In this document: positions 269-1,963 of the stretch, one piece after another
How positions within the stretch are numbered: position 1 is the stretch's first letter
Layout of the letters: each line of letters starts with the position of its first letter
DNA from: Acidimicrobiia bacterium
GTDB lineage: Bacteria; Actinomycetota; Acidimicrobiia; Spongiisociales; JAENVV01
Length of the DNA: 49,209 bases
NCBI GenBank assembly: GCA_041577335.1
Contig: JBFGJH010000018.1
Coordinates: 1 to 49,209, forward strand
Reading direction: 5' to 3'
Notes under the pieces: model-generated
The model's database searches: none
Told to the model about the DNA's origin: nothing
Seen by the model: the letters and a program-made list of their open reading frames with translations, nothing else
Translations under genes and position numbers: made by a program

Positions 269-946
269 ATGCCGTCTTTTGTGTGTTCGTCTTGTGGCGC
301 CGAGTTCACGCTGCCGCAGGCGGTGCTCGATAGGTATCCCGGTTGGACACCTCGTTCGTGTATGGAGTGCCGGGACAAGTCTGCAAGCCCTGGACCCTCT
401 TCGGGAGCTTCGCGATCTCGACCCAAGACGTCCAAGCCCAAGCGCTCTGCAACCGCCAACAACAATCTCACTCTGGCCGAGGTTCTCGACCGATTCGCTG
501 ACGGCCCGACGGACGGCGTCTTCACGGATGGGAGCTCGGTTCCCAACCCGGGCCCTGGTGGTTGGGGCTCCGTTTACGTCTCCAAGGGTGAAATCGTCGA
601 CCAGGCGTTCGGGCACCACGAAGAAGAGACCACCAACAATCGTATGGAGCTGACCGCCATCATCGAAGGCATCAAATTGGTGCCCGCCGGCGAAGCGGCC
701 GTGGTGTACACCGACTCCAACTTGGCCGCCCGCACCATCAACGAATGGGCCGAGGGATGGGCCCGCAACAGCTGGCGACGAAAGAACAACGCACCCGTCG
801 CCAACCTCGATCTCGTCCAAGAGTTGTACGACCTGACCAAGGCACGTCCCGAGATCACGATTCGCTGGATCCGAGCACATTCAGGCAGTCGGTGGAACGA
901 ATATGCCGACGCGCTGTCTACCGCGTGGCAGCGCGACACGTTGTAG
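269..946 (+). CDS. rnhA: Ribonuclease HI with N-terminal CxxC...CxxC zinc-ribbon domain
   Basis: RNase HI motifs VFTDGS..NPGPGGWG, TTNNRMEL, YTDS, WIRAHSG..WNE.AD; N-terminal CSSC...CMEC; TACACT -10 at 257-262, 6 nt before ATG (leaderless-type). Confidence 0.92.
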   Translation: MPSFVCSSCGAEFTLPQAVLDRYPGWTPRSCMECRDKSASPGPSSGASRSRPKTSKPKRSATANNNLTLAEVLDRFADGPTDGVFTDGSSVPNPGPGGWGSVYVSKGEIVDQAFGHHEEETTNNRMELTAIIEGIKLVPAGEAAVVYTDSNLAARTINEWAEGWARNSWRRKNNAPVANLDLVQELYDLTKARPEITIRWIRAHSGSRWNEYADALSTAWQRDTL

Positions 947-955
947 CCTTTTGGC

Positions 956-1108
956 ATGGCCAAATACTCACTGGGCAACGCCTTCACGAACTGGCGAGAT
1001 TCGGACCTTCCCGTGCTGGAGAAGGCTCGACTCACCGCGAAGAACAACCTGATCAAGCTTCGAACCGGAAAGGGTTGCTGTGGCAATCACGGCGAGCCCG
1101 GCTGTTGA
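956..1108 (+). CDS. Small Cys-rich protein MAKYSLGNAFTNWRDSDLPVLEKARLTAKNNLIKLRTGKGCCGNHGEPGC (50 aa); possibly extends through UGA=Sec to 1168
   Basis: Hand-translated, below the ORF-track cutoff; fills the rnhA-uppS gap; TAGCCT -10-like hexamer at 944-949, 6 nt before ATG; C-terminal CCGxHGxPGC. Confidence 0.75.
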   Translation: MAKYSLGNAFTNWRDSDLPVLEKARLTAKNNLIKLRTGKGCCGNHGEPGC

Positions 1109-1189
1109 GCGGGCCTCTCGGAGCCCAGTTCGGGCTCTCACGACCATGACCACCCACACGACCACTGAGATCACGACGCCGGGGCGGCG

Positions 1190-1963
1190 ATGGTCAGCCT
1201 GACCGGCCCGGTCTACCGGCTCTACGAGAGACGCCTCGAGGCGTCGCTGGACCCGGCTCGGTTCCCCCACCACATAGGAATCATCCTCGACGGACATCGG
1301 CGCTACGCCCGGTCGGCCGGCTTGCCCGACTACACGGCCGCCTACCGGGCCGGCATGGCGAAATTCGAGAACTTCCTCGGATGGGCCGAGGAGCTGGAGA
1401 TTCCCACGATCACGGGTTGGGTGTTGAGCACACAAAACCTCGACCGCCCGCCTGAAGAGCTGGAGCCGTATTTCGATGTCCTCATCGAGTTGTTCGCCCG
1501 ACTCCCTGACCTCGCCTCCCGGTACGACATGAAGATTCGCGTCATCGGCAGCCTCGACCTGCTCCCAGCCAGGCTGGTGGCCGCCGCCAAGCAGATGGAA
1601 GAGCGGCGTCCGACCGGCAGCCGACGGCTGAACATCGCCATGGGCTACGGCGGCCATGAGGAGATCGCCGATGCGGTGCGGGAGCTGGTCGCCAGGTTGG
1701 TGACCGAAGGAGTCCCTCCCGAGGAGATTCCTACGCACATCACTCCCGAGACTTTGAGTGGGCACATGTACCTGTCGGATCTGCCCAACGCCGACCTGAT
1801 CATCCGCACGTCGGGTGAGTCGCGGCTGTCGGGTTTCTTGCTGTGGCAGTCCGCATACGCCGAGTTCTCATTCGTCGATGTCTACTGGCCAGCCTTCCGC
1901 CGCATCGACTTCTTCCGATCCCTTCGCGAGTATGGCCGGCGTGAGCGACGCTTCGGAAAGTAG
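1190..1963 (+). CDS. uppS: cis-isoprenyl diphosphate synthase (UppS family, Rv1086-like subtype)
   Basis: HIGIILDGHRR, DLIIRTSGESRLSGFLLWQSAYAE, C-terminal RRFGK. Confidence 0.92.
   Translation: MVSLTGPVYRLYERRLEASLDPARFPHHIGIILDGHRRYARSAGLPDYTAAYRAGMAKFENFLGWAEELEIPTITGWVLSTQNLDRPPEELEPYFDVLIELFARLPDLASRYDMKIRVIGSLDLLPARLVAAAKQMEERRPTGSRRLNIAMGYGGHEEIADAVRELVARLVTEGVPPEEIPTHITPETLSGHMYLSDLPNADLIIRTSGESRLSGFLLWQSAYAEFSFVDVYWPAFRRIDFFRSLREYGRRERRFGK

Follow-up and report, generated by a model that had tools for sequence, protein, structure and literature searches.

The window analysed here is a 49,209-nucleotide stretch (contig JBFGJH010000018.1) from an Acidimicrobiia bacterium whose genome comprises 3.4 Mb, has a GC content of 63% and is 91% complete. 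Between an RNase H gene and a cis-isoprenyl transferase gene, it carries a short open reading frame (956-1108) that by translation encodes 50 amino acids, has the C-terminal end GCCGNHGEPGC and then meets TGA. If this TGA is taken as selenocysteine (U), the protein grows to 70 residues and continues as U-AGLSEPSSGSHDHDHPHDH up to the next stop codon, TGA, at 1166-1168. Both the frame and its read-through, which the original prediction had picked out, are borne out by translation. As the 50-residue form is already present in the protein collection (P0049, 100% identical), the gene is mis-terminated rather than wholly uncalled. The features of the locus are as follows:

269-946, forward strand: upstream neighbour, RNase H with an N-terminal CxxC pair (PF00075, E 9e-34)
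944-949, forward strand: possible -10 element TAGCCT, 6 nt 5′ of the ATG (from sequence)
956-1168, forward strand: whole gene, predicted 70-residue selenoprotein (ORF translation and homologue comparison)
956-1075, forward strand: residues 1-40, basic, two predicted helices (6-15 and 20-37), conserved Asn12 and Asn30 (AlphaFold2 and alignment)
1076-1105, forward strand: motif Cys41-Cys42-G-[NH]-x-G-[EQ]-P-G-Cys50 (alignment of distinct genes)
1106-1108, forward strand: TGA, predicted selenocysteine 51 (codon counts and Cys orthologues)
1109-1165, forward strand: 19-residue read-through tail ending in HDHDHPHDH (1139-1165), variable and dispensable across the family
1120-1138, forward strand: SECIS-type hairpin, stem of 6-7 bp, loop AGUUC at 1127-1131 (folding and homologues)
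1190-1963, forward strand: downstream neighbour, cis-isoprenyl transferase (PF01255, E 9e-62; best match NF011403)

The N-terminal extension of the RNase HI (269-946) contains two CxxC motifs, which look zinc-ribbon-like, and a basic linker.

We compared the codon after Gly-Cys in 284 distinct genome-derived homologues, pooled after duplicate removal from all genome searches and including the best 80 of 524 GTDB stretches. It is TGA in 278, TGC in 4 and TGT in 2, as foreseen for a selenocysteine codon, and no homologue was found that ends in TAG or TAA at this position with conservation lost downstream. Further along in frame, these genes terminate with TGA in 149, TAG in 97 and TAA in 31 cases (TAG or TAA in 128 of 277). 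The real stop thus varies freely in these genomes and codon 51 does not. The same picture emerges from each search: close relatives (homologues in 23 of 61; codon TGA in 24/24), GTDB (524 stretches matched; TGA in 79 of the best 80), Actinomycetota (gene in 73 of 401 genomes searched; TGA in 73/73), Chloroflexota (30 of 301; TGA in 27/30) and Dehalococcoidia (107 of 301; TGA in 93/97, with 90 loci examined and 2 unparsed). The unpublished genomes G036 and G147 contribute one locus each, and five more enter the selA tally given below; the conclusions are independent of them.

Cys forms of the gene occur as well. When metagenomes were scanned for the motif with TGC, TGT, TGG, TAC, TAT or TAG behind it, TGA and TAA being excluded by design, the 120 matches listed comprised TGT 84, TGC 35, TGG 1 and TAG 0. 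Many of these Cys forms run on as C-EGSSAKHHSHG-stop, where a normal open frame encodes the His tail, and others as C-E-stop; being largely from one clade, they represent few independent events. Independent Cys forms are the locus L118, the pair L138 and L168, and 7 of the 150 listed representative proteins. L138 and L168 still keep a strong SECIS-like hairpin behind their TGC and are probably recent Sec-to-Cys changes. Trp stands at the Sec position in 4 of the 150 listed representatives (P0163, P0167, P0212 and P0225) and in one poor-quality locus (L165), possibly owing to TGA-to-TGG changes or to gene calling under code 4. In a degenerate copy of the gene (L310, genome G066), Cys50 is replaced by Phe and both TGA and hairpin remain, and locus L076 bears a second gene copy on the opposite strand.

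Downstream of the TGA, GAGCCC and GGGCTC enclose AGTTC at 1121-1137, exactly where a hairpin had been placed by the original prediction, with the loop starting 18 nt after the UGA. The calculated energy is -11.9 kcal/mol for 7 bp, one extra G-U pair counted. This hairpin is part of the minimum free energy structure when 40 nt from the UGA onwards, or any of three shorter segments, are folded; in a 70-nt fold an alternative pairing wins, and the stability is no better than that of shuffled sequences (z 0.53). The hairpin of this single copy is not beyond chance, and the case rests on comparative data. According to the available text of a 2026 review, the bSECIS model calls for a loop of 3-9 nt, a stem of 4-16 bp, a spacing of 16-37 nt and -7.5 kcal or better, together with a G in the first two loop positions and G-U or G-G at the 5′ side of the apical loop (PMC13188914). 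The hairpin at 1120-1138 agrees with this published model (5-nt loop AGUUC, 7 bp, 18 nt, -11.9).

With an ungapped stem of -7.5 kcal or better and G-U or G-G early in the loop as the criterion, a hairpin is present in 133 of 165 distinct TGA loci versus 2 of 95 Cys loci and 1.2% of 6000 sampled genomic TGAs; the remaining 32 TGA loci fail this strict ungapped cut-off. Counted from the codon, the loop G of 142 distinct hairpins falls at offset 19 or 22. Among 93 hairpins with a five-nucleotide loop, pairs 3-6 are kept in 87, 88, 90 and 85 cases, against maxima of 74, 76, 56 and 70 in shuffles, which ignore kinship and were run on hairpins selected by their loop pattern. The pair kept in 90 of the 93 uses A-U 33, C-G 28 and G-C 22 times and reached at most 56 in 500 shuffles, pointing to compensatory changes. 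The hairpin thus extends to the homologues, as had been anticipated, and covaries. In 22 of 277 Sec forms, translation stops within five residues of Sec, and in several lineages (U-M-stop, U-R-stop) the hairpin then lies past the true stop. Such loci, with Sec, one to five residues, a stop and the hairpin in untranslated RNA, are L284, L285, L290, L297, L389, L392, L393, L403, L416 and L422. As the hairpin persists beyond an early true stop, it appears to be kept as RNA.

The host encodes all components for selenocysteine insertion: selA, an adjoining selB, a selD with its own in-frame TGA, and tRNA-Sec. Their absence had been named as grounds for abandoning the selenoprotein, and that objection falls away. 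RF2 is encoded too, so UGA is a stop by default in this organism. Across Actinomycetota, selA occurs in 69 of 73 gene-bearing genomes compared with 267 of 401 overall, and the gene is found in 69 of 267 selA-positive versus 4 of 134 selA-negative genomes, counts in which kin are not independent. Three of the four selA-negative carriers have tRNA-Sec or selB. In G108, the genome of the TGA-form, hairpin-bearing locus L284, selA, selB and tRNA-Sec were not found at 91% completeness. Among Chloroflexota, selA accompanies 26 of 27 TGA-form and 2 of 3 Cys-form genomes, and was not found in G688. Cys forms are hence not confined to hosts that lack Sec, given that two of the three Cys-form Chloroflexota genomes keep selA. 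The close relatives carry selA in 57 of 61 cases and are for that reason uninformative on co-occurrence. The genome G001, of the same genus and devoid of both the gene and selA, had been considered as a case of co-loss and was dropped, as tRNA-Sec and a partial selB are present.

Because codon 51 is either UGA or Cys, because a covarying hairpin accompanies the UGA and disappears in Cys forms, and because the host has the machinery, the UGA at 1106-1108 is, on comparative sequence evidence, almost certainly read as selenocysteine in a SelB-dependent manner, and the predicted Cys/Sec/His selenoprotein of about 70 residues finds support in the codon counts, the covarying hairpin and the host machinery alike. 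The gene might conversely end at an ordinary stop, with the hairpin acting in termination or transcript stability and the His-rich stretch belonging to another small ORF or arising by chance; this would suit the presence of RF2, the 136 of 150 listed representative proteins that end at GC, the GTG or ATG found after the TGA in 51 of 172 loci, and the one gene-bearing genome (G108) without detected Sec machinery. We consider this highly improbable, since TAG and TAA are absent from all 284 homologues, Cys orthologues run through in frame, 121 of the 172 loci offer no ATG or GTG after the TGA, no U-tract terminator was found, and the hairpin has a loop G at fixed offsets and is lost together with the UGA where Cys is encoded. 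A code reassignment of UGA to Trp in this organism, reported for one Actinomycetota family in the accessible part of PMC13462651 and in keeping with the five Trp forms, is already largely refuted and deserves next to no weight: RF2 is present, the neighbouring genes are intact under table 11 with some ending in TGA, the orthologues have Cys, and the hairpin is specific to codon 51.

In an alignment of 114 diverse members, N30, C41, C42, G49, C50 and U/C51 are invariant and N12, G43, G46 and P48 nearly so. Over 374 distinct genes, C41 and C42 are present in 374/374, C50 in 373, G49 in 373 and P48 in 371, the conservation of C41 and C42 being partly built into the search patterns. AlphaFold2 models helices at residues 6-15 and 20-37 and a Cys segment without regular structure (mean pLDDT 73, with 82-88 over residues 11-40; pTM 0.50). 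The helical part carries a net positive charge in 357 of 357 distinct homologues, with a median of +6. The idea of a membrane anchor was tried; hydrophobic moments are barely above those of shuffles (0.42 versus 0.34 and 0.60 versus 0.56), and an anchor is not claimed. Judged from these alignments, the conserved core consists of the two basic helices and CC-x7-C(U/C); the His tail is an optional addition. The original prediction of an in-frame His/Asp tail holds insofar as His makes up 15.8% of the tail in frame compared with 1.7% and 0.9% in the other frames (172 TGA loci). The tail is, however, not essential, as the early-stopping Sec forms and the many Cys forms reading CC-E-stop demonstrate.

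Clustering at 90% leaves 1471 proteins in the family and clustering at 50% leaves 522 clusters, almost all of them cut short at the UGA; the family spans Actinomycetota and Chloroflexota, and the names displayed are all 'hypothetical protein'. Among 8000 candidates scored, no fusions were seen: none of the 37 longer proteins has a Pfam domain, and the 25 of them examined are N-terminal over-calls that all end at GC. Tandem arrays of two to three paralogues occur in nine Dehalococcoidia genomes (loci L376-L384; G997, G1022, G850, G984, G799, G769, G935, G834 and G954). The paralogues have diverged, a separate TGA and hairpin are present in every copy parsed, and the L376 and L379 arrays lie between leuD and a LeuB-type gene.

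At the start of the gene, TAGCCT (944-949) overlaps the stop codon of the upstream RNase H gene. A TANNNT element just 5′ of the start codon is found in 95 of 174 TGA loci, as opposed to 12 of 174 in a control window 20 nt further upstream, and a consensus scan found no full sigma-70 promoter. The sequence pattern points to a gene that is likely leaderless and has its own promoter, which fits its wandering genomic position; it may also be co-transcribed with rnhA, the -10 box overlapping the rnhA stop codon.

As the original prediction had not recognised the family, we searched for known relatives, and no library family matched. The window protein has no match in Pfam or NCBIfam. For the 114 read-through members, the best Pfam hit has E 0.014 with no family matched, and NCBIfam (June 2026) gives nothing better than E 0.019, in single members only; the models of named CU-motif families (SaoC, KCU-star/DUF466, MbdU, TsoC and the other NCBIfam selenoprotein models) likewise gave no HMM match. 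PDB sequences reach E 0.35 at best, and Foldseek found no match for the predicted structure. A wide VIA-align search yielded no Z of at least 5, the best being a generic helix pair (Z 3.5, rmsd 1.7, 39 aligned). The ESM Atlas holds unnamed clusters only for the 50-residue part and no usable named match for a Cys form, and the two Rfam matches are both due to chance. Literature searches by motif and topic returned no description of the family. Among the 119 selenoprotein families that a 2026 review lists, none is recognisable as this one in the available text (PMC13188914); BSepDB, as far as its accessible description goes, contains only homologues of earlier families (PMC13326102); and no GCU motif was found in the supplement text of the deep-Sep study, where longer sequences are incomplete (PMC12013277). 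The family is uncatalogued as far as the compared sources reach, the families of Haft and Tolstoy 2025 being covered via NCBIfam models only. It could stand as an unnamed candidate in Haft and Tolstoy 2025, Deng et al. 2026 or Table S2 of BSepDB, or be the unnamed 78-residue deep-Sep family of the Actinomarina preprint.

The recoding mechanism is a known one; the protein architecture is new, and its function is what we infer below. As in the formate dehydrogenase alpha type of bSECIS recoding, there is an in-frame UGA, a downstream hairpin, SelA, SelB, SelD and tRNA-Sec, and there are Cys orthologues; the hairpin of the host's own fdhA has the same geometry after its UGA as that at 1120-1138. 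In contrast to that type, no library model covers the present family, and in some members the hairpin lies untranslated beyond the true stop. SaoC (NF040734), KCU-star/DUF466 (NF033934), MbdU (NF045648) and the N-terminal CU of HgcA (NF040863) are similarly small or modular, have a Cys-Sec dipeptide and CC orthologues, are usually UGA-truncated in databases and are proposed heavy-metal binders. The present proteins, by contrast, have a further vicinal pair (CC), 7 residues upstream and preceded by two basic helices, and no conserved operon accompanies the gene. The deep-Sep 'hypothetical protein DW', a small dual-CXXC protein (NF041197), resembles it in length (about 55 residues), GxU motif and a Desulfobacterota host; its published sequence has two CxxC around R-U and no CCG motif and thus belongs to another family (PMC12013277). 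The Cu(I) buffers MymT, CopZ and Csp, as described in the available part of PMC11672702, are small cytoplasmic Cys/His-rich proteins too, and a few homologues of our protein lie beside copZ or copA; no sequence or fold similarity to them was found, and the present site has four chalcogen ligands only, including selenocysteine.

The 413 loci collapse to about 169 independent contexts, in most of which the neighbours are unrelated, and the search for a conserved operon yielded none. Many Dehalococcoidia loci read leuC-leuD-gene-leuB, with leuD and a LeuB-type gene both adjoining in 14. In one Actinomycetota clade, a TCA cluster (mdh, icd, sdhAB, class I fumarase) contains the gene behind the fumarase or mdh, and in 30 loci, mostly of the Cys form, a 2-oxoacid:ferredoxin oxidoreductase beta gene lies upstream. 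These adjacency counts are raw, and Fe-S enzyme genes are common in these genomes. Copper genes adjoin in five contexts, as copZ-copA (L316/L343), YHS-copA (L358) and copA-YHS (L196), with YHS also at L147 and L229. Sought post hoc and all in Dehalococcoidia-like or metagenome loci, the copper links are weak and amount to six motif matches, one of them false, in about 169 contexts, against a loose background of 1.5% (P ~0.05). The gene's own neighbours in the window, RNase H and isoprenyl transferase, are among the unrelated ones, and an isoprenyl transferase neighbour recurs in the window's own group. Divergent cupredoxin-like genes lie upstream at L246, L275, L278 and L282 in one Actinomycetota clade.

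Taken as a whole, we judge it very probable that the locus encodes a 70-residue selenoprotein in which Cys41-Cys42...Cys50-Sec51 form a likely binding site for a soft metal, for instance Cu(I). The hairpin, 18 nt behind the UGA, would bind SelB-tRNA(Sec), whose Sec inserted at this codon would complete the site, and the Gly/Pro-rich linker would bring the two vicinal pairs, CC and CU, together as four ligands. Because AlphaFold2 shows no secondary structure in the Cys segment, this geometry is a model. Selenium may let the site bind soft metals more tightly or make it more reactive, docking on a partner or membrane may be the task of the basic helices, and the His/Asp tail could be an optional extra metal collector. 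More tentatively, and with the chances somewhat against it, the protein may be a Cu(I)-type buffer or chaperone that takes up and hands on such ions and thereby shields exposed Fe-S enzymes. A role of this type is favoured because other selenoproteins with CC and CU motifs have been linked to the handling of heavy metals (Haft and Gwadz, 10.1101/2022.07.06.499078, as far as that text is available), because Cu(I) attacks exposed Fe-S dehydratases (accessible text of PMC11672702), and because copper exporters and such dehydratases are among the neighbours; that only Cys/Sec, Gly, Pro and two Asn are invariant also counts for a metal role. Selenium supply might further limit output, as termination at the UGA leaves a product with three Cys.

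The main rival to a metal role is a redox shuttle in which Cys50-Sec51 cycles as a selenenylsulfide, like a detached C-terminal arm of mammalian thioredoxin reductase, and is reduced via Cys41-Cys42 or by a separate flavin disulfide reductase. Mammalian thioredoxin reductase has a C-terminal Gly-Cys-Sec-Gly motif. The likeness drawn to it by the original prediction stands for the Gly-Cys-Sec tripeptide, nearly invariant here and likewise on a flexible segment. It does not carry further: a single one of 271 distinct TGA copies has Gly after Sec, the pair is usually trailed by about 16 more residues instead of being C-terminal, and there is neither a flavoprotein body nor a thioredoxin fold. At L314/L315 (=L362/L365) and L424, the gene is immediately followed, on its own strand, by that of a class I pyridine nucleotide-disulfide reductase lacking a C-terminal Cys pair, and 13 Cys-form loci have such a gene in convergent orientation; the reductase link is seen in 2-3 of the ~169 contexts. 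Disulfide reductases and NifS adjoin the gene in a few contexts and rubredoxin, rubrerythrin, SOD, MsrA and WrbA in single ones, and most selenoproteins are considered redox proteins in the available text of PMC13188914. A shuttle alone leaves the His tail unexplained, and we regard it as possible though rather doubtful.

Less likely still is a selenoprotein that carries its own Fe-S cluster on the four chalcogen ligands and acts as a carrier, repair factor or sensor for Fe-S enzymes. The four ligands with their Gly/Pro spacing and the recurrent place beside LeuCD, class I fumarase, 2-oxoacid:ferredoxin oxidoreductase, NuoI/ferredoxins and NifS would be consistent with this role. Vicinal Cys pairs, however, rarely both ligate one cluster, and a single one of the 114 members touched the CCG domain model (E 0.054). 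The leader-plus-core appearance and the tandem arrays in Dehalococcoidia might also suggest a modified-peptide precursor, with a helical leader and a Cys/Sec core that radical SAM or related enzymes would process. Against this, the scanned neighbour representatives (52, 48 and 89 proteins) include no radical SAM enzyme, RiPP maturase or dedicated exporter, and the helical part is conserved like a folded unit, so that a precursor is very improbable. Broadly put, the family might comprise stand-alone micro-selenoproteins with a Cys3-Sec site, each protecting Fe-S enzymes as a dedicated buffer of soft metals or as a free-standing redox arm, in which selenium switches the ligand set at the UGA; we offer this wider view as speculative.

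If the preferred soft-metal reading is true, the protein would be selenium-based and metallothionein-like, with three Cys in one state versus three Cys, Sec and the His tail in the other. A large missed family, found in about one fifth of the sampled Actinomycetota and one third of the sampled Dehalococcoidia and truncated at the UGA in nearly all database copies, would be added to the bacterial selenoproteome, and an HMM for it would correct annotation at once. With 50-70 residues and natural Sec and Cys versions, it provides a very small system in which to study the contribution of selenium to a metal or redox site that is not enzymatic, and the members with a SECIS element past the stop constitute a natural test of how near termination bacterial Sec insertion works.

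The strict hairpin pattern follows 78 of the 92,660 TGAs in the host genome, including that of the present gene. Two more of the 78 are in-frame TGAs in what we take, from their motifs, to be formate dehydrogenase alpha and AhpC/TSA-like genes. The AhpC/TSA-like and formate dehydrogenase alpha-like genes (C57:10547 and C50:17225, minus strands) show the same hairpin geometry. At C34:16368, also on the minus strand, a long ORF with an in-frame TGA (HYGTFGFF-U-FDLFVPG) is followed by a strong SECIS-type hairpin and is another candidate selenoprotein of this host.
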